From a virus (Duplodnaviria; Heunggongvirae; Uroviricota; Caudoviricetes): a stretch of 5,487 nucleotides of DNA. The notes beneath the pieces were generated by a model. It was not told the DNA's origin, did no database searches, and saw only the letters and a list, made by a program, of their open reading frames with translations. Below are positions 1 through 5,487 of this stretch, in pieces. Positions within the stretch are counted from its first letter, which is position 1; every line of letters begins with the position of its first letter. The stretch covers positions 1-5,487 of the IMG/VR virus record IMGVR_UViG_2671180921_000003, one strand, 5' to 3'. The translations under genes and the position numbers were made by a program.

Positions 1-123
1 AGCATTGAGAGCGGCTTCAACGCTGAGCTTGTTCATCAGCCGATCAAACTTACTGAGGTCTTCAGGGGTTTTGAGGTTTTTGGCCAGTTCGTTAGCCAGA
101 GCCTGTAACTGTTTCTCGTCCAT
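1..123 (-). CDS. N-terminal 41 codons of an IS256-family (Mutator-type) transposase; gene continues past the left edge of the window
   Basis: Reverse complement of 1-123 translates from ATG (plus coords 123-121) as MDEKQLQALANELAKNLKTPEDLSKFDRLMNKLSVEAALNA, matching the helical N-terminus recalled for Mutator/IS256-type transposases just before their E-x-T-x-HLG motif. GAAGG Shine-Dalgarno lies 7 nt upstream on the minus strand. Only a fragment is visible, so family assignment is from memory. Confidence 0.5.
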   Translation of the reverse strand, partial: MDEKQLQALANELAKNLKTPEDLSKFDRLMNKLSVEAALNA

Positions 124-220
124 ACATTAACCTTCATTTGATTCTGCATTGAGCATATCAAAATCGGGCAATTACACAAATCTATGTACAGGCTCGGCAT
201 CCTCAATGCACCCGCACTTA

Positions 221-247
221 ACCCGCTTCGGCGGGTTTTGTTTTTTC
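221..247 (+). terminator. Rho-independent terminator (ACCCGC-UUCG-GCGGGU stem-loop plus T tract)
   Basis: Seen directly: 6-bp GC-rich stem 221-226/231-236 with a UUCG tetraloop, followed by TTTTGTTTTTT (236-247). The T tract follows the hairpin only on the + strand. Confidence 0.65.
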
Positions 248-318
248 CTGGCATTTTGGTTTACAATTCGCACGCCAGCCTGAACAACTGGCACCTGCTG
301 CGCCAGCAGAGACAACCG

Positions 319-597
319 ATGGCGCACGATACCAAATTACACAATTCTAATGATTCTGCTGTCTTTGCCAGCAGGTGCGGACGGCGTTTTCACGCATTCA
401 CATCAGACTGGTTCCAGCATCCTCCATGCACTGAAGAGCAGGCTGAATGGATAATTCAGTGTTACCGCAGGCGTGGATACGAGGTTAAGAAAGCTCTTAG
501 TCTCGACTATCGTCACTGGATAATCTCAGTCAGACTCCCTTACTCCGAATGCCCACCGCGTCCGTCCCGCACATTCCAGCAACGCATCTGGAGGTAA
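319..597 (+). CDS. Hypothetical small protein (92 aa from ATG 319); possibly the 3' remnant of a gene disrupted by the upstream IS
   Basis: Open frame ends at TAA 595-597, 1 nt before the GTG start of the DUF968 gene (operon-like packing). The ORF-track start at 184 would read through the terminator hairpin at 221-247, so ATG 319 is preferred. Shine-Dalgarno is weak and the product is not recognised. Confidence 0.3.
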   Translation: MAHDTKLHNSNDSAVFASRCGRRFHAFTSDWFQHPPCTEEQAEWIIQCYRRRGYEVKKALSLDYRHWIISVRLPYSECPPRPSRTFQQRIWR

Positions 598-598
598 C

Positions 599-1648
599 GT
601 GCGGGTATTACTTCGACCTGTTCCGGTACCGGAACTTGGGTTGGTGGTCCTTAAACCAGGCCGTGAATCCATGCAGGTATTCCATAACCCTCGAGTGCTT
701 GTGGAGCCGGAACCGAAAAGCATGCGCGGTCTGCCGTCCGGCATCGCCCCTGCCGTTCGCCAGCCGCTGGCGGAGGATAAATCATTACTGCCGTTTTTCA
801 GCAATGAGCGTGTGATTCGTGCTGCTGGCGGCGCTGGTGCACTGTCTGACTGGCTGTTGCGCCATGTTAAATCCTGCCAGTGGCCACACGGCGATTATCA
901 CCACAGTGAAACCGTCATTCACCGTTATGGCGCTGGCGCGATGGTGTTGTGCTGGCACTGCGACAACCAGTTGCGTGACCAGACCTCCGAATCACTCGGG
1001 CAACTTGCTCACCAAAATTTGTCAGCATGGATGATTGACGTCATACGCCATGCAATGAATGGCACGCAGGAGCGGGAATTATCTCTGGCTGAATTATCCT
1101 GGTGGGCGGTCTGCAATCAGGTGGCGGATGCACTCCCAGAGTCAGTATTACGTCGTTCTCTGGGGTTACGTGCGGACAAAATCCGCTCAGTGTACCGCGA
1201 AAGCGACATTGTACCGGGAGAGCAGAGCGCCACCAGCATACTGAAGCAGCGCACAAAAAATCTTGCGCCGTTGCTTCACACCCACCAGCCACAGAACCCA
1301 GCACAGGAAAAGCAGGTGGTCAGCATTGCCGTTGATCCGGAGTCTCCGGAATCTTTCATGAGGCGACCTAAACGTCGCCGTTGGGTAAATGAGAAATATA
1401 CGCGCTGGGTGAAGACACAGCCGTGTGCGTGTTGTGGTCAACCAGCCGACGATCCCCATCACCTGATTGGTCACGGTCAGGGAGGGATGGGAACAAAGGC
1501 CCACGATATTTTCACGCTACCGTTGTGCCGGGAACATCACAACGAACTTCATGCGGATCCGCTGGCGTTCGAAGAAAAGCATGGTTCTCAGGTTGATTTA
1601 ATTTTTCGTTTTCTTGATCACGCCTTTGCAACCGGCGTGCTTGGGTAA
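599..1648 (+). CDS. DUF968 family prophage protein (YdfU-like) with a C-terminal HNH-like Cys/His motif
   Basis: 349-aa ORF with GTG start and GGAGG Shine-Dalgarno 4 nt upstream. The sequence closely resembles my recollection of E. coli Qin prophage YdfU (DUF968). C-terminal motif CACCG..DDPHH..C-REHH-NELH (nt ~1424-1552) and a second Cys/His cluster at nt ~875-961. Sits directly upstream of rusA, as in many lambdoid prophages. Confidence 0.85.
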   Translation: MRVLLRPVPVPELGLVVLKPGRESMQVFHNPRVLVEPEPKSMRGLPSGIAPAVRQPLAEDKSLLPFFSNERVIRAAGGAGALSDWLLRHVKSCQWPHGDYHHSETVIHRYGAGAMVLCWHCDNQLRDQTSESLGQLAHQNLSAWMIDVIRHAMNGTQERELSLAELSWWAVCNQVADALPESVLRRSLGLRADKIRSVYRESDIVPGEQSATSILKQRTKNLAPLLHTHQPQNPAQEKQVVSIAVDPESPESFMRRPKRRRWVNEKYTRWVKTQPCACCGQPADDPHHLIGHGQGGMGTKAHDIFTLPLCREHHNELHADPLAFEEKHGSQVDLIFRFLDHAFATGVLG

Positions 1649-1660
1649 AAGAGGTTACTG

Positions 1661-2020
1661 ATGCGTATAGAGTTTGTTTTGCCTTATCCGCCGACGGTGA
1701 ATACTTACTGGCGACGTCGTGGCAGCACATATTTTGTATCAAAAGTCGGTGAGTGTTATCGCCGTGATGTGGCACTAATTGTTCGCCAGCAGCGGTTGAA
1801 ATTAAACCTGTCCGGAAGGCTGGCAATAAAAATTATTGCAGAGCCACCGGATAAGCGCCGCCGCGACCTGGACAATATCCTGAAGGCACCACTGGATGCG
1901 CTGACGCATGCCGGACTTCTCATAGACGACGAGCAGTTTGATGAAATCAATATTGTGCGCGGACTGCCTGTTCCTGGTGGTCGGCTGGGGATAAAAATCA
2001 CAGAACTGGAGTGCGCATGA
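1661..2020 (+). CDS. rusA: Crossover junction endodeoxyribonuclease RusA (Holliday junction resolvase)
   Basis: 119-aa product with RusA family hallmarks (PPxxNxYxRRRG near the N-terminus, DxRRRDLDN..K..DAL..AG, DDxQ, GGRL..ITE) and the same length as E. coli RusA. AAGAGG Shine-Dalgarno 7 nt upstream of ATG 1661. Confidence 0.9.
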   Translation: MRIEFVLPYPPTVNTYWRRRGSTYFVSKVGECYRRDVALIVRQQRLKLNLSGRLAIKIIAEPPDKRRRDLDNILKAPLDALTHAGLLIDDEQFDEINIVRGLPVPGGRLGIKITELECA

Positions 2021-2706
2021 ATAACCAGTATTTACAGTTTGTGCGTGAGCAGCTCATTATCGCTACCGCTGATTTGAGTGGGGCAACAAAAGGTCAGCTT
2101 GAAGCCTGGCAGGAGAATGCCATGTTTGATACAGGGCGTTACAGGCGTAAAAAAATCCGGTACCGCGATGAAGTGACTGGAAGAATGATAACGCGGGATA
2201 GTCCACCGATACCGGGAAAACAATCACTGGCGAAAGGCTCATCAATTGCTCTGGTAAGTCAGGTTGAGTTTTCGACATCATCATGGCGACGGGCAGTTCT
2301 GTCTCTTGAAGAACTTCATAAAGCCTGGTTGTTGTGGTGTTACAGCGGGAGTATTTATTGGGAATATCAGATCGCGATAACACAGTGGGCGTGGAATGAA
2401 TTTAATGCTCAATCCGGTACCAGAAAAATTGCAGGGAAAACGCAGGAACGCCTGAAAAAATTAATCTGGCTGGCGGCGCAGGCAGTAAAAGCAGAACTTT
2501 TTGGTGGGGAAGGTTATGAATACCAGGAGCTGGCATTACTGGCGGGAGTGACAACTAAAAACTGGTCAAAAACATTTACTCGTCACTGGGTTGCAATGAA
2601 ACACATTTTTCACCGACTGGATAGTGAGGCTTTATTGTTTGTAATGAGAACACGTTCAAAACAAAAGACGGCATTTTCAAAGCAAAGTGTTGCAAAAGTA
2701 GATTGA
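2017..2706 (+). CDS. Putative late-gene antiterminator (Q-like), 229 aa
   Basis: Called mainly on synteny: immediately downstream of rusA (ATGA start/stop overlap at 2017-2020, GGAG 6 nt upstream) and immediately upstream of a promoter-terminator pair, tRNAs and the lysis genes. I do not recognise a specific Q family from the sequence. The ORF track starts at GTG 2011; ATG 2017 is preferred. Confidence 0.6.
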   Translation: MNNQYLQFVREQLIIATADLSGATKGQLEAWQENAMFDTGRYRRKKIRYRDEVTGRMITRDSPPIPGKQSLAKGSSIALVSQVEFSTSSWRRAVLSLEELHKAWLLWCYSGSIYWEYQIAITQWAWNEFNAQSGTRKIAGKTQERLKKLIWLAAQAVKAELFGGEGYEYQELALLAGVTTKNWSKTFTRHWVAMKHIFHRLDSEALLFVMRTRSKQKTAFSKQSVAKVD

Positions 2707-2718
2707 AAGGCATATATT
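2690..2718 (+). promoter_or_regulatory. Candidate sigma70 late promoter (pR'-like): -35 TTGCAA, 17-bp spacer, -10 TATATT
   Basis: Seen directly: TTGCAA at 2690-2695 and TATATT at 2713-2718 overlapping the 3' end of the Q-like gene. A second -10-like element with TG (cTGATATT, 2729-2736) lies about 12 nt downstream, as expected for a sigma70-dependent pause element in lambdoid pR' regions. Confidence 0.4.
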
Positions 2719-2770
2719 TCATGCAAATCTGATATTTTGCCGATTTTGTACGTGATGGCAAAAGCAAACA

Positions 2771-2796
2771 AAACCCGCCCACAAGCGGGTTTTTTG
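2771..2796 (+). terminator. Rho-independent terminator (tR'-like) about 65 nt downstream of the Q-like gene
   Basis: Stem AAACCCGC (2771-2778) / GCGGGTTT (2785-2792), 6-nt loop, T tract 2790-2795. With the upstream promoter it would give a short (~70 nt) transcript, as in lambdoid pR'-tR' units. Confidence 0.7.
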
Positions 2797-2877
2797 TGCC
2801 ACTTATCTCGGATAGGCATGGTGAATGCGCTGGTGGAGGAGATAAGGGTGATTTTTAATCAGGTGATTTTTGAATGC

Positions 2878-2906
2878 TTGCAACATTGATTTCGTAACAT
2901 TATTAT
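2878..2906 (+). promoter_or_regulatory. Strong sigma70 promoter for the tRNA cluster: -35 TTGCAA, 17-bp spacer, -10 TATTAT, GC-rich discriminator
   Basis: TTGCAA 2878-2883 and TATTAT 2901-2906, followed by CCTGCGCCC; predicted start 2-3 nt before the mature tRNA 5' end at 2916. Upstream direct repeat of AGGTGATTTTT (2847-2859 and 2862-2875) provides UP-element-like A/T tracts. Confidence 0.5.
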
Positions 2907-2915
2907 CCTGCGCCC

Positions 2916-2991
2916 GGCCCTTTAGCTCAGTGGTGAGAGCGAGCGACTCATAATCGCCAGGTCGCTGGTTCAAATCCAGCAAGGGCCACCA
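2916..2991 (+). tRNA. ileZ: tRNA-Ile2-like (anticodon CAU; tools often label it tRNA-Met), ileZ/ileX-like, 76 nt with encoded CCA
   Basis: Full cloverleaf folded by hand: acceptor GGCCCTT/AAGGGCC, D-arm GCTC-AGTGGTGA-GAGC, anticodon loop CTCATAA (CAT at 2949-2951), T-arm GCTGG-TTCAAAT-CCAGC, discriminator A, CCA. Very similar to my recollection of E. coli ileX, and in the Q-downstream position where lambdoid and Stx phages carry ileZ. Confidence 0.85.
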
Positions 2992-2992
2992 A

Positions 2993-3068
2993 CCGCCACT
3001 AGCCATCAGGAAAGAGCGTCAACCCTTTAAGTTGAGTGTGCGAGGTTCGAGTCCCCGGTGGTGGTCCA
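2993..3068 (+). tRNA. Atypical tRNA-like gene (76 nt, CCA encoded); best fold gives anticodon UUU with C33; possibly degenerate
   Basis: Acceptor stem CCGCCAC/GTGGTGG (one G-U), anticodon stem TCAAC/GTTGA with loop CCTTTAA (3024-3030), T-arm CGAGG-TTCGAGT-CCCCG with one A-C mismatch, D-stem only 2 clean pairs, discriminator U. It occupies the middle slot of the ileZ-argN-argO trio known from lambdoid phages but does not fold as a standard tRNA-Arg. Confidence 0.45.
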
Positions 3069-3081
3069 TTATCAGTATTCT

Positions 3082-3158
3082 GCGTTGTTAGCTCAGCAGG
3101 ACAGAGCAATTGCCTTCTAAGCAATCGGTCACTGGTTCGACTCCAGTACAACGCGCCA
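3082..3158 (+). tRNA. tRNA-Arg (anticodon UCU, reads AGA), 77 nt with encoded CCA
   Basis: Acceptor GCGTTGT/ACAACGC, D-arm GCTC..GAGC, anticodon stem ATTGC/GCAAT with loop CTTCTAA (TCT at 3116-3118), T-arm ACTGG-TTCGACT-CCAGT, discriminator G, CCA. Corresponds to the argN/argO-type rare-codon tRNA of lambdoid phages; which of the two names applies is not resolved. Confidence 0.85.
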
Positions 3159-3171
3159 CACTTATTTTCCC

Positions 3172-3195
3172 GGCTCGCTTTTGCGGGCCTTTTTT
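3172..3195 (+). terminator. Rho-independent terminator after the tRNA cluster
   Basis: Stem GGCTCGC (3172-3178) / GCGGGCC (3183-3189) with one G-U pair, UUUU loop, then TTTTTT 3190-3195. Confidence 0.65.
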
Positions 3196-3328
3196 GTATC
3201 TGCGCCACGCCCGGCGCATATCAACCACAGAGCCTTTCAGGGGGGAGCCATAGGGAACGGTCGGTGTGACTGTCTCTGTGGGCTGATCATTCCTGAGTGC
3301 TGGCTCACCCACCCAAAGGAACGTCACG

Positions 3329-3760
3329 ATGTTTGGAATCTTCAAAAAGAAAACCCGCAGAGCGGCAGCGGAAATTAAAAAGTTTGAGAAACGCGATCTG
3401 GCACAGGCGGTGATTAACGCTGCATACCTGGTGGCCTATGCAGATGGTGAATGCGAGGCATCTGAGAAAGCGAAGATCGAACAGGTCTTACGTAATCAGC
3501 CTGCGTTGTCTGCGTTTACCTCGGAAATTAATGCGATTAGCGCAACTATTATCGGTCAGCTGGATACCAATTTTAAAATTGGTCGTCGTGCCGCGTTACG
3601 CGAGATTGAGGATGTGAAACACGATGCGCGTGAAGCGGAAGATGTGCTGGATGTGGCGGTGGCCATTGCGGAGGCAGACGGCGAAATTGAGCCGGAAGAG
3701 CGCAAGGTGCTGGAAGAGATTGCCGGTGTTCTGGGTCTTCGTCTGGAGAATCACCTGTGA
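3329..3760 (+). CDS. TerB-like (tellurite-resistance TerB family) protein, 143 aa
   Basis: ATG 3329 with AAAGGA Shine-Dalgarno 8 nt upstream. Acidic helical protein with two repeated Y/A-x-ADGE..E-x-E-K..L modules (AYADGECEASEKAKIEQVL and AIAEADGEIEPEERKVLEEIA), which I associate with the TerB fold. Family call is from memory, not a search. Confidence 0.7.
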   Translation: MFGIFKKKTRRAAAEIKKFEKRDLAQAVINAAYLVAYADGECEASEKAKIEQVLRNQPALSAFTSEINAISATIIGQLDTNFKIGRRAALREIEDVKHDAREAEDVLDVAVAIAEADGEIEPEERKVLEEIAGVLGLRLENHL

Positions 3761-3924
3761 CGGTAAAACTGCGCCTGGCTGTGGCTGCACTCCTGCTGTT
3801 TCTGGTGGTGATGGTGGATTTCACCAGCAGAATCATGTCGGTGCTGGCGGATGGGGTGCTGGTCTGCGGCATTGTGGTATTGCTGTGGCCGGTGATAAAA
3901 AGAAACAGCCTGTATAATGCTTGA
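3757..3924 (+). CDS. Small hydrophobic membrane peptide (55 aa, two predicted transmembrane helices), translationally coupled to the TerB-like gene
   Basis: GTG start at 3757 overlaps the TerB stop (GTGA); GGAG at 3745-3748 lies 8 nt upstream. Product VTVKLRLAVAALLLFLVVMVDFTSRIMSVLADGVLVCGIVVLLWPVIKRNSLYNA. Absent from the ORF track because it is under 60 codons. Internal ATGs at 3811 and 3835 are alternative starts. Confidence 0.45.
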   Translation: MTVKLRLAVAALLLFLVVMVDFTSRIMSVLADGVLVCGIVVLLWPVIKRNSLYNA

Positions 3925-4139
3925 TTTTTTTGTTTGCTGTTTATTAAAAACACTTCTGCATGGTGAATCCCCCTGTGCGGAGGGGCGACTGGTGTAGGTA
4001 GCATTTATTATGTTGTAGGCAAGCCGACGCGGGTTCAGTGACACCGGCTGAATTCACCGGGAGGCACCCGGCACCATGCTTTGCCACAAAAGTGTTATTT
4101 CTGTTTTTCTCAAACTATCATCGTTATTCCTTTATTTCC

Positions 4140-4166
4140 GGCTGCGCATGGCGCGGCCTTTTTTTT
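4140..4166 (+). terminator. Strong rho-independent terminator (8-bp GC stem plus 8 T)
   Basis: Stem GGCTGCGC (4140-4147) / GCGCGGCC (4151-4158) with one G-U pair, followed by TTTTTTTT 4159-4166. The T tract follows the hairpin on the + strand only. Confidence 0.75.
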
Positions 4167-4252
4167 ACGACCAGCCACTGGCAGATGGTCATCCTGTGAT
4201 TTGATTCCGGTTCCGGCTTTTTAACTCTGTTCCTGTACACGGGAGAAATTCG

Positions 4253-4423
4253 ATGTCGATTAAACATTACGATGTTGTCAGGGCGGCGTCGCCGTCAGAC
4301 CTTGCGGAAAAGCTGACACACAAACTGAAAGAGGCCTGGCAGCCGTTTGGTAGTCCGGTGGACATAACTCCTTATACCCTGATGCAGGCGATTGCAGCAG
4401 AAGGTGATGTGGTGGTCAAGTAA
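4253..4423 (+). CDS. Small conserved prophage protein, 56 aa (tentatively DUF1737-like)
   Basis: ATG 4253 with GGGAGA Shine-Dalgarno 6 nt upstream, stop TAA 4421-4423. Product MSIKHYDVVRAASPSDLAEKLTHKLKEAWQPFGSPVDITPYTLMQAIAAEGDVVVK. The DUF assignment is a tentative recollection. Confidence 0.55.
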   Translation: MSIKHYDVVRAASPSDLAEKLTHKLKEAWQPFGSPVDITPYTLMQAIAAEGDVVVK

Positions 4424-4599
4424 TACTGGCCACAGTTACCCAGAAACTGAATGGAGTTGCAGGTTCGGCACTCCAGGTCATAAAAGACAGTCTGACACTG
4501 AGCCTGAATGCGCTGACGCTGACGGATGTTACAAAAAGTGCAGCGTATGGCGTTGAGATAGAAAGTCTGGTGCTGGAGATGAATGCACCGGCAGCATAA
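4408..4599 (+). CDS. 63-codon open frame with protein-like composition but no ATG/GTG/TTG start (possible pseudogene, non-canonical start, or recoding); product tentatively resembles small DUF826-type prophage proteins
   Basis: This frame is open from just after TGA 4405-4407 to TAA 4597-4599 and translates to ..GQVILATVTQKLNGVAGSALQVIKDSLTLSLNALTLTDVTKSAAYGVEIESLVLEMNAPAA. It overlaps the 3' end of the upstream gene by 16 nt. A strong Shine-Dalgarno-like AAGGTGAT sits at 4401-4408, but the only in-frame candidate starts are ATA 4423 or CTG 4426. Confidence 0.3.
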   Translation, partial: CGGQVILATVTQKLNGVAGSALQVIKDSLTLSLNALTLTDVTKSAAYGVEIESLVLEMNAPAA

Positions 4600-4607
4600 T
4601 AAAAAAG

Positions 4608-4637
4608 AGCCAGCGCCCACTCTGAAGGACGCTGGCT
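4608..4637. other. Stem-loop AGCCAGCG / CGCTGGCT (8-bp stem, 14-nt loop) flanked by A tracts
   Basis: Seen directly. AAAAAAG lies upstream and AAAAGG downstream, so a U tract would follow the hairpin only on the minus-strand transcript; possible minus-strand terminator or recombination scar. Confidence 0.4.
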
Positions 4638-4752
4638 AAAAGGCCTTATATGTTTGTAGAGACTTATTTTTCACAGACAGCAATGATGTCTGTCAATATA
4701 TTATCAATATGCGGATTGTTTCAGTTACAGATGCTTTATTAAAGAAAAAAAC

Positions 4753-4787
4753 AGCCAGCACTGACTTTCGGTGGAGAGGTGCTGGCT
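4753..4787. other. Stem-loop AGCCAGCAC / GTGCTGGCT (9-bp stem, 17-nt loop) flanked by A tracts; paralog of the 4608-4637 hairpin
   Basis: Seen directly. Same AGCCAGC core and same A-tract context (AAAGAAAAAAAC upstream, CAAAAGG downstream) as the hairpin at 4608-4637. Confidence 0.4.
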
Positions 4788-4961
4788 CAAAAGGATAGAT
4801 GGACTTCACATGTTGCTTCTATATGGCGGTACATTTTCTGACAGACAGTGACGGATGTTGTCAAGATATTGTGTCATTTATAACCTGAATCAGGGGAGGC
4901 CGGAATGTTATCTGGCATTTTTAGCAGAGCCTGAATGCCATAATCACGGCTCCCGGAGTTG

Positions 4962-4992
4962 GCCGTCAGTGGGTGACACTGGCGGCTTTTTT
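4962..4992 (+). terminator. Rho-independent terminator about 50 nt upstream of the holin start
   Basis: 10-bp stem GCCGTCAGTG (4962-4971) / CACTGGCGGC (4977-4986) with one G-U pair, 5-nt loop, then TTTTTT 4987-4992 followed by further T-rich sequence. Confidence 0.75.
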
Positions 4993-5042
4993 GTTTTTCT
5001 TTACTTTCATTTTCTGTCGGCGGTGACGGAGACATACATCAG

Positions 5043-5249
5043 ATGGAAAAAATCACAACAGGTGTGTCATACACCACGTCAGCGGTGGGGACGGGATACT
5101 GGTTACTGCAGCTGCTGGACAAAGTCTCTCCATCCCAGTGGGTGGCAATAGGTGTATTGGGTAGCCTGCTGTTTGGCCTGCTGACGTATCTGACAAACCT
5201 TTATTTCAAGATTAAAGAAGATAAGCGTAAGGCTGCACGGGGAGAGTAA
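5043..5249 (+). CDS. S: Class II holin, phage 21 S (S21) family pinholin-like lysis protein, 68 aa
   Basis: Product [68 protein letters not shown] is near-collinear with my recollection of S21 / DLP12 EssD (..[45 protein letters not shown]). GGAG 11 nt upstream. Confidence 0.9.
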
Positions 5250-5253
5250 TTCA

Positions 5254-5487
5254 ATGACTCAAAACTATGAACTGATTGTGAAAGGGATCCGCAATTTTGA
5301 GAATAAAGTTACGGTAACTTTAGCGTTACGGGACAAAAAACGCTTTGACGGTGAAATTTTTGACCTGGACATCTCGCTGGACCGTGTTGAAGGTGCCGCG
5401 CTGGAGGTTTATGAGGCTGCAGCCAGAAGGAGCATCAGACAGGTCTTCCTGGATGTTGCTGCCGGGTTATGTGAAGGGGACGAGCTG
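5254..5487 (+). CDS. Hypothetical protein, 5' part only (78 codons visible; continues past the window end)
   Basis: ATG 5254 with GGGGAGAG Shine-Dalgarno 7 nt upstream, 4 nt after the holin stop; open to the end of the window. Product MTQNYELIVKGIRNFENKVTVTLALRDKKRFDGEIFDLDISLDRVEGAALEVYEAAARRSIRQVFLDVAAGLCEGDEL is soluble and has no signal-arrest-release or transmembrane N-terminus, so it is not an S21-type SAR endolysin. Confidence 0.55.
   Translation, partial: MTQNYELIVKGIRNFENKVTVTLALRDKKRFDGEIFDLDISLDRVEGAALEVYEAAARRSIRQVFLDVAAGLCEGDEL

Follow-up and report, generated by a model that had tools for sequence, protein, structure and literature searches.

An apparent Arg-to-Lys anticodon shift in a prophage tRNA cassette, with a probably damaged copy and a possible role against tRNA-cutting nucleases

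Among the several E. coli defence nucleases that act on host tRNA-Lys(UUU), PrrC cleaves it 3′ of U33 (PMC2610378), and AriB of the PARIS system cleaves U36AAUC/A41 (the slash marks the cut), an activity that is abolished by a U39→A change (PMC12409363, PMC11464382); the AriB targets named are Lys(UUU), Thr(UGU) and Asn(GUU) (PMC12409363). Phage T5's tRNA-Lys escapes PARIS and rescues infection (PMC11464382, PMC12409363), and phage tRNA-Lys genes rescue phages from PrrC170 too (PMC11555353). These proven escapes from tRNA-cutting immunity stem from virulent phages such as T5. The element considered here is a 76-nucleotide (nt) tRNA-shaped gene on the + strand at 2993-3068 of a 5,487-nt stretch of viral DNA (the window; positions 1 to 5,487 of IMG/VR record IMGVR_UViG_2671180921_000003, Caudoviricetes), where it is the middle of three tRNA genes of a lambdoid prophage and is called tRNA-Lys(ttt) by ARAGORN. 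Its closest described counterparts are argN, the tRNA-Arg(UCG) that forms the middle gene of ileZ-argN-argO cassettes in Stx-converting and other lambdoid phages, and host lysT; tRNA genes 3′ of the antiterminator gene Q are also described in SfI, Sf6, ST64T and phage 21, which carry Asn(GUU) and Thr(UGU) (PMC3636060). Alloacceptor anticodon shifts, or tRNA remolding, are known from eukaryotic nuclear and mitochondrial tRNA genes (PMC3923123, PMC4783518).

The best explanation for this locus, considered probable on balance, is a class of tRNA genes remodelled from Arg to Lys and possibly retained against nucleases, of which the window holds a damaged copy. It joins computed parts (homology, anticodon shift, compensated pairs, distribution, extra lesions and a codon-usage mismatch) to inferred ones (lysylation, nuclease resistance and lost function). 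The gene is already recognized, as automated annotation labels intact copies tRNA-Lys; a literature search, in which ileZ, argN and argO gave only irrelevant results, returned nothing that describes how the gene stems from an Arg tRNA, that C33 is fixed in it, or that it may be linked to defence.

The middle gene and its relation to argN

A first, sequence-only reading of the window had described the element as a structurally atypical tRNA between two clean ones, and each structural point of that description is borne out. The flanking genes score 72.5 and 68.1 bits on the Rfam tRNA model. The acceptor stem of the element, CCGCCAC/GUGGUGG, has seven pairs, one of them G3·U70 (2995/3062); the 3′ end (3058-3068, + strand) contains the strand GUGGUGG with U70 at 3062, the discriminator U73 at 3065 and an encoded CCA at 3066-3068. 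The D arm (3002-3017, + strand) reads GCC, AUCAGGAAA and GAGC, and keeps G18, G19 and A20; U12 is absent between 3003 and 3004, and the near-absent stem noted earlier amounts to two pairs, G10:C25 and C11:G24, next to which ARAGORN draws a C·A mismatch. This D stem is considered crippled because of a 1-nt deletion (GCTC→GCC) relative to intact alleles. The anticodon stem-loop UCAAC-CCUUUAA-GUUGA (3019-3035, + strand) has C33 at 3025, an anticodon UUU at 3026-3028 in a slot where an Arg anticodon had been expected, and G39, U40 and U41 at 3031-3033; the T arm CGAGG-UUCGAGU-CCCCG (3041-3057, + strand) contains the mismatch A51·C63 (3043/3055). Canonical elongator features present are the 7-bp acceptor stem, the 5-bp anticodon stem with its 7-nt loop, the T loop UUCGAGU, G18 and G19, U8, A14 and CCA; those that the window allele fails are the four-pair D stem, U33 and the five-pair T stem.

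On the Rfam tRNA model (RF00005) the window allele scores 28.2 bits, against a gathering threshold of 29, with a standard cloverleaf alignment (E = 1.4e-4) that reproduces the earlier hand fold; the covariance-model and ARAGORN searches return no high-scoring tRNA-Arg with a different fold. The 28.2-bit match was obtained from a 94-nt stretch searched alone; the element was missed by the whole-window Rfam scan at E <= 1, which is a filter effect. Minimum free energy (MFE) folding is uninformative here, as the clean ileZ also misses its cloverleaf and all three tRNAs give weak z-scores; cloverleaf energies were therefore evaluated explicitly. For the window allele the cloverleaf energy is -15.4 kcal/mol and the MFE is -23.3 kcal/mol, so that the cloverleaf lies 7.9 kcal/mol above the MFE; for the main Lys allele it lies 2.7 kcal/mol above. 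The element is a genuine tRNA-type gene and not a chance fold, because it shows 84.4% BLAST identity to argN alleles and occupies the same slot after ileZ.

The comparison with argN and argO that the sequence-only reading had called for places the middle gene in homology to argN: against the ileZ-argN-argO cassettes of an Stx2a phage and an O157-type prophage it aligns column for column with argN, while ileZ and argO are nearly identical between the window and those cassettes. The argN gene itself is a canonical tRNA-Arg(UCG) of 55.1 bits on the Rfam tRNA model. In a simple global alignment the element has 60 positions identical to argN and 46 of 76 identical to host lysT, which points to an Arg-type body with a Lys anticodon; an independently captured host tRNA-Lys is ruled out by the same counts. 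From argN to the element, three stem pairs are swapped on both sides (7:66 from U:A to C:G, 27:43 from C:G to U:A and 30:40 from G:C to A:U), and the anticodon loop goes from CUUCGAA to CCUUUAA (U33C, C35U, G36U); the further changes are two in the variable loop, G51→A, the deleted D-stem base and C70→U.

Both genes lie directly after an identical ileZ and have in common the D loop with A20, the T loop and the U73-CCA end, and the 5′ acceptor strand of the element departs from that of argN at one base. The element differs from argN in having UUU and not UCG, in C33, in the three swapped pairs, in A51·C63 and in the spacer after ileZ, which is 1 nt long as opposed to 7 nt in the argN cassette; the window allele additionally lacks U12 and carries U70. 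On these comparisons the UUU allele class descends from a tRNA-Arg(UCG) gene like argN that underwent an alloacceptor anticodon shift, in which the loop was rewritten while three stem pairs were replaced with pairing kept.

Likeness to host lysT, whose anticodon arm is GUUGA-CUUUUAA-UCAAU, is confined to the UUU anticodon and to a loop identical at six of seven positions (C32, U34-U36, A37 and A38); the element has C33 and not U33, the stem UCAAC/GUUGA and not GUUGA/UCAAU, and U73 and not A73. The anticodon-stem strands of the element (3019-3023/3031-3035) correspond to those of MG1655 lysT (locus L267, 155-230) with 5′ and 3′ exchanged; this may be coincidental, since argN already has three of these five pairs. 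As in described cases of tRNA remolding, the body of the element is closer to the Arg acceptor family than to tRNAs sharing its own anticodon, and synteny shows descent; it differs from them in lying in a temperate-phage cassette, in combining two anticodon substitutions with U33C, and in having been followed by frequent decay. No U33, UCG, UCU or UUG version of this anticodon stem-loop is found in IMG/VR. The 17-mer anticodon arm matches 38 contigs in species-representative genomes and yields no deeper relatives for covariation analysis there; the enterobacterial hosts among these contigs are E. coli and Shigella flexneri only, and the rest, not individually checked, are presumed to be chance matches.

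Selection on the UUU class and state of the window copy

The UUU form is a widespread, discrete allele class that also occurs in induced phages, not a private oddity of the window. Of 5,426 complete E. coli genomes, about 770 have the Lys-like form; by megablast with the 76-nt element, 222 of the 5,426 carry the exact window allele and another 535 carry alleles that are 95-99% identical. In the commonest Lys-like allele in IMG/VR the acceptor stem is perfect (G3:C70), the D stem has four pairs and the score is 44.4 bits. Alleles with an intact D stem are labelled tRNA-Lys by the Prokaryotic Genome Annotation Pipeline (PGAP), and GenBank depositors likewise label intact members tRNA-Lys. Among 100 IMG/VR loci with enough flanking sequence, 80 have the order ileZ–Lys(UUU)–Thr(UGU)–Gly(UCC) and 11 have the window-type order ileZ–Lys–argO; the induced phage PhiR47_1 carries this cassette of four tRNAs, placed between its Q and holin genes.

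Across 46 distinct middle-gene alleles, 96.1% of pair cells hold standard pairs, and three pairs distinguish Lys-clade from Arg-clade alleles through two-sided changes; a U27·G43 intermediate is found in two argN alleles. The path from the argN-like gene to the main Lys allele comprises 12 substitutions, of which six form three compensated pairs and one breaks a pair. When substitutions are placed at random, an outcome with three or more compensated pairs and no more than one broken pair occurs in 1e-4 to 1e-3 of simulations, depending on transition bias; the UUU class therefore arose under selection for tRNA shape and not by simple decay. The loop state is discrete, and the resulting loop agrees with that of host tRNA-Lys at 6/7 positions. 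C33 is fixed across every Lys-like allele; position 51:63 is restored as an A:U pair in allele K8.

These data bear directly on the idea that the whole UUU class is a dead relic, in which argN lost its function, drifted to UUU and was carried along between two useful tRNAs. Such a relic could account for C33, U73 and A51·C63 in the class, for its high diversity relative to ileZ, for the many visibly decayed alleles and for the deletion, fusion or scrambling of the middle slot in about a quarter of clusters. Neutral drift would, however, be very unlikely to leave three fully compensated pairs and a single broken one among 12 substitutions; the loop is a tRNA-Lys loop at six of seven positions with no surviving intermediates, the commonest allele retains a clean cloverleaf at 44.4 bits, and variants that break the structure are mostly singletons. 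A relic origin of the class is thus considered unlikely; were the gene merely a decaying relic, the finding would be ordinary.

The window copy differs from its class. Scores on the Rfam tRNA model step down from 55.1 bits for argN through 44.4 for the main Lys allele and 37.0 for the L001 allele to 28.2 for the window allele. The ileZ–Lys–argO lineage carries U70 plus further lesions: in the L001 allele these are G48A and G66A, giving a C7·A66 mismatch, and in the window allele it is the loss of U12. Relative to the commonest intact allele, the window allele thus adds a 1-nt D-stem deletion and C70→U; G3·U70 is seen only in this lineage, and intact alleles have G3:C70. Because of the D-stem deletion and G3·U70, the sub-threshold Rfam score and the absence of a PGAP annotation, the window copy is rated as probably impaired or non-functional as a decoder. 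Of the interpretations offered by the sequence-only reading, a decaying tRNA fits the window copy best; it does not extend to the class, which evolved under selection for tRNA shape. Like prophage tRNA pseudogenes, the window allele falls below the Rfam threshold, is left without PGAP annotation and has a stem deletion; unlike them, it has a parent class with compensatory evolution and a clean cloverleaf.

It is rather unlikely, though less so than a relic origin of the class, that the window allele is still a working tRNA-Lys, with a D stem of G10:C25, C11:G24 and C13:G22 (A23 bulged) held by tertiary contacts and with G3·U70 tolerated. The ARAGORN call persists, and the acceptor stem, anticodon stem, T loop, G18 and G19, U8, A14 and CCA are intact; the allele occurs in 222 complete genomes, and the D-stem deletion is found on two backgrounds (K2, with U70 before argO, and K18, with C70 before Thr), which indicates that it spread or recurred. 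The sub-threshold Rfam score, a cloverleaf 7.9 kcal/mol above the MFE and the lack of PGAP annotation in sampled records argue against this, as does the loss of U12, which removes the 12:23 pair; the frequency of the allele may merely mirror heavily sequenced enterohaemorrhagic E. coli (EHEC) lineages. Impairment of the window copy is accordingly preferred.

G3·U70 is the major identity element for alanyl-tRNA synthetase. In principle the G3·U70 pair at 2995/3062, specific to the ileZ–Lys–argO lineage, could recruit this enzyme to the window allele so that AAA/AAG would sometimes be read as alanine; this is highly improbable. When a stem decays, C→U opposite G is the neutral change that occurs most often, U73 and C2:G71 fall outside the alanine context, the D-stem lesion speaks against a stable tRNA, and the activity would probably harm the lysogen.

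Annotation pipelines disagree at this locus, which comes out as tRNA-Lys, is left blank or, by analogy, would be named argN. The window allele lacks a PGAP annotation in every sampled record and is called tRNA-Lys by the GenBank depositors of PPompW prophages; it is probably best flagged as a tRNA-Lys-like pseudogene or variant. The arrangement around it looks recombinant, because a Lys-type 1-nt spacer upstream is combined with argN-type sequence downstream, and the window copy is regarded as an allele that has diverged further within this recombinant ileZ–Lys–argO order.

Decay is also seen as a graded series in E. coli genomes: at loci L269 (380-472) and L270 (392-484) Lys-like alleles accumulate C2U, C4U, U8C and C11U, followed by G18A, C25U and C28U, among intact, annotated ileZ, Thr and Gly genes. 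The middle slot is varied at L014, L008, L023 and others (27 of 110 ileZ-anchored clusters), at L021, L048 and L093, and at L030; in one common allele the anticodon arm is swapped for unrelated sequence and no ARAGORN call is made, and other forms are argN-argO fusion genes and an allele shifted from UCG to UCU.

The sister cassette ileZ–Lys(UUU)–Thr(UGU)–Gly(UCC) is found, for example, at L009 (7193-7502) and in PhiR47_1 (L272, 15195-15504), and the sequences of its Thr and Gly genes match MG1655 thrU and glyT at 100% identity. Part of the host thrU-tyrU-glyT operon seems to have been captured by the phage, because locus L110 retains a truncated tyrU after thrU. In four loci (L179, at about 3440-3700 on the − strand, and three similar ones) the thrU-like gene has undergone G35→U, giving a second UUU anticodon in the arm ACUGA-CUUUUAA-UCAGU; it accompanies a Lys-like allele with U4, C8, U11, G73 and a restored A51:U63. 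With this Thr-body gene, the cassette shows a shift to UUU that occurred a second time and independently.

Decoding, codon usage and tRNA-cutting nucleases

U35 and the UUU anticodon are the main identity elements for lysyl-tRNA synthetase (LysRS), and C35 is a major identity element for arginyl-tRNA synthetase. The LysRS anticodon elements are present in the window element as UUU with A37 and A38, and the tRNA-Lys discriminator A73 is absent, with U73 in its place; of the features of the argN lineage A20 is kept, but C35 is replaced by U. Since the intact form has U35 and the UUU anticodon and has lost C35, recognition by LysRS is expected; the intact allele would then be lysylated and would decode AAA/AAG.

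The sequence-only reading had proposed that the trio supplies tRNAs for rare codons, citing the AGA, AGG and ATA codons of the Q-like gene; these do occur (3, 1 and 3, respectively, in the 231 codons of the open reading frame (ORF) at 2011-2706, along with 16 AAA). Codon usage was compared between one phage, PhiR47_1, and a host sample of 49 kb of MG1655, which is small and includes ribosomal-protein genes. Per 1000 codons, the phage has 7.5 ATA against 4.0 in the host, 12.7 ACA against 8.3, 12.8 GGA against 5.6, 5.8 AGA against 2.1 and 5.9 CGA against 3.7, enrichments of 1.5-2.8 times; AAA is not enriched (37.0 against 41.8), and AAA/(AAA+AAG) is 0.71 in the phage and 0.70 in the host sample. 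The rare-codon model fits ileZ (ATA), argO (AGA), argN (CGA/CGG) and the sister cassette's Thr and Gly genes, so that the earlier proposal holds for both outer genes of the trio; it does not explain the Lys-like gene, because AAA is not enriched.

Ordinary codon supplementation, with the gene as an extra tRNA-Lys for AAA-rich phage genes, is accordingly considered improbable. It has in its favour that all cassette tRNAs read A-ending codons (ATA, AAA, ACA, GGA, AGA, CGA) and that the Q-like ORF has its 16 AAA codons, and the authors of the SfI study invoked a codon-supply argument for Thr(UGU) (PMC3636060). The codon of this one gene, though, is the one that falls short of the enrichment shown by the others; the K-12 lysT region alone has five tRNA-Lys(UUU) genes, and a poor tRNA with C33 and U73 would contribute little.

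With host tRNA-Lys plentiful and the phage showing no AAA enrichment, nuclease evasion is favoured over codon supply as the reason for keeping the gene. It is proposed that the intact form is retained because its anticodon arm is unlike that of host tRNA-Lys at the points where tRNA-Lys-directed nucleases act. Positions 36-41 read UAAGUU in the element, UAAUCA in host lysT and UAAACC in T5, and the PrrC scissile position is C33 in the element and U33 in host lysT. G39-U40-U41 thus stand in place of the U39-C40/A41 needed by AriB, with C33 at the PrrC scissile position; once host tRNA-Lys is destroyed, the intact form could sustain Lys decoding or soak up the nuclease. That the nuclease sites differ from those of the host suggests an anti-defence role for the family. 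The specific form of this proposal remains tentative and rather doubtful: the UUU class would be a counter-defence Lys decoder or decoy, left uncut by PrrC through C33 and, through G39-U40-U41, by PARIS/AriB-type Toprim tRNases and perhaps by P2 Old. Taken together, post-Q cassettes cover the three AriB targets, which gives the proposal circumstantial support: the cassettes described here have Lys(UUU) and Thr(UGU), while those of SfI, Sf6, ST64T and phage 21 contribute Asn(GUU) and Thr(UGU).

The closest parallel is the T5 tRNA-Lys(UUU) (Burman et al. 2024; Belukhina et al. 2025), which is likewise phage-encoded and has an anticodon stem unlike that of the host at 39-41. The T5 gene is a true tRNA-Lys homologue with U33, A73 and proven function; the present element, by contrast, has an Arg-derived body, C33 and U73, occurs in temperate phages and has a putative function.

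Several findings weigh against a class that is functional and retained for evasion. T5 tRNA-Lys, the proven PARIS escape tRNA, retains U33, and the Thr(UGU) gene of the sister cassette keeps the AriB site because it is identical to host thrU. Constraint on the Lys-like gene is weak, with a per-site diversity in four-tRNA loci of 0.023 as compared with 0.003 for ileZ (an 8-fold ratio) and 0.007 for Thr (3-fold). A rough estimate, extrapolated from evenly sampled hit rows, puts the share of E. coli copies that fail the PGAP tRNA call at about half, comprising the window allele (about 222 genomes) and alleles of the C2U/C4U/U8C/C11U type (about 190, or about a quarter of copies). The slot is often dispensable, because middle genes that ARAGORN cannot call are frequent (27 of the 110 ileZ-anchored clusters). 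All Lys alleles, finally, have C33 in place of the near-universal U33, U73 in place of the tRNA-Lys A73, and a fixed A51·C63, features that could equally mark a poor or dead tRNA. A nuclease-resistant Thr variant in the sister cassette was considered as well and is ruled out by the identity of its Thr(UGU) to host thrU.

A tRNA-shaped RNA that is never aminoacylated, serving as an unproductive nuclease decoy or as an RNase P/processing spacer for ileZ maturation, is a very improbable alternative. Such an RNA could work despite C33, U73, the mismatched T stem and even the shortened D stem, the ileZ CCA lies only 1 nt from the 5′ end of the element, and a decoy role of phage tRNAs has been raised (PMC12409363); support specific to the idea is absent, however, and UUU with A37 and A38 resembles a decoding loop. 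Processing of ileZ does not seem to require the middle gene, because clusters with a scrambled or deleted middle keep ileZ and argO, which counts against the spacer. The tRNA-derived regulatory RNA suggested by the sequence-only reading found no support.

If the intact form of the remodelled Lys class works as proposed, common E. coli prophages, those of EHEC lineages included, would carry a Lys tRNA on an Arg body that escapes PrrC or PARIS; post-Q tRNA cassettes would then be anti-tRNase kits and not rare-codon kits. This would be a clean natural case of anticodon-shift evolution in phage, and would change the view of a known tRNA cassette upstream of the stx and lysis genes.

The surrounding prophage segment

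By PGAP annotation of close relatives, the window covers the late-regulatory region of a lambdoid prophage, with DUF968, RusA and antiterminator Q followed by the three tRNA genes and a gene of the TerB family. The tRNA unit on the + strand is preceded directly by a putative sigma-70-like promoter (TTGCAA-17-TATTAT, 2878-2906, a consensus match). The first gene is ileZ-like with anticodon CAU (2916-2991; ARAGORN and the 72.5-bit Rfam match), and its homologues carry the PGAP label tRNA-Ile; the second is the argN-derived tRNA-Lys(UUU)-like gene with its D-stem deletion and G3·U70, placed at 2993-3068 by ARAGORN, Rfam and the alignments; the third is an argO-like tRNA-Arg(UCU) (3082-3158; ARAGORN and the 68.1-bit Rfam match). 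The unit ends at an intrinsic-terminator-like hairpin with a T run (3172-3197, + strand; hairpin proper 3172-3189). A protein-coding reading of the ORFs at 2999-3208 (− strand) and 3036-3269 (+ strand), which overlap the three tRNA genes, was set aside without a specific test.

Upstream, a promoter-like site lies at the very end of the Q-like ORF (2690-2718, + strand) and a hairpin with a T run at 2770-2793; the interval 2690-2795 (+ strand) gives weak, sub-threshold matches of isrJ/isrK type (24.5 and 22.7 bits). It looks like a pR′/tR′ short-transcript unit 5′ of a separately promoted tRNA trio.

Among the 5,426 complete E. coli genomes, none reaches 95% identity to the whole window, the best match being about 92% over 95% of its length. 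The window is a mosaic prophage segment; its tRNA region, taken alone, shows 98.9% identity to PPompW-type prophages. Further downstream, at 3929-4115 (+ strand) and 3′ of the TerB-like and DUF3927 genes, the window contains a strong match to the gammaproteobacterial small RNA STnc100 of 116.4 bits against a gathering score of 47.

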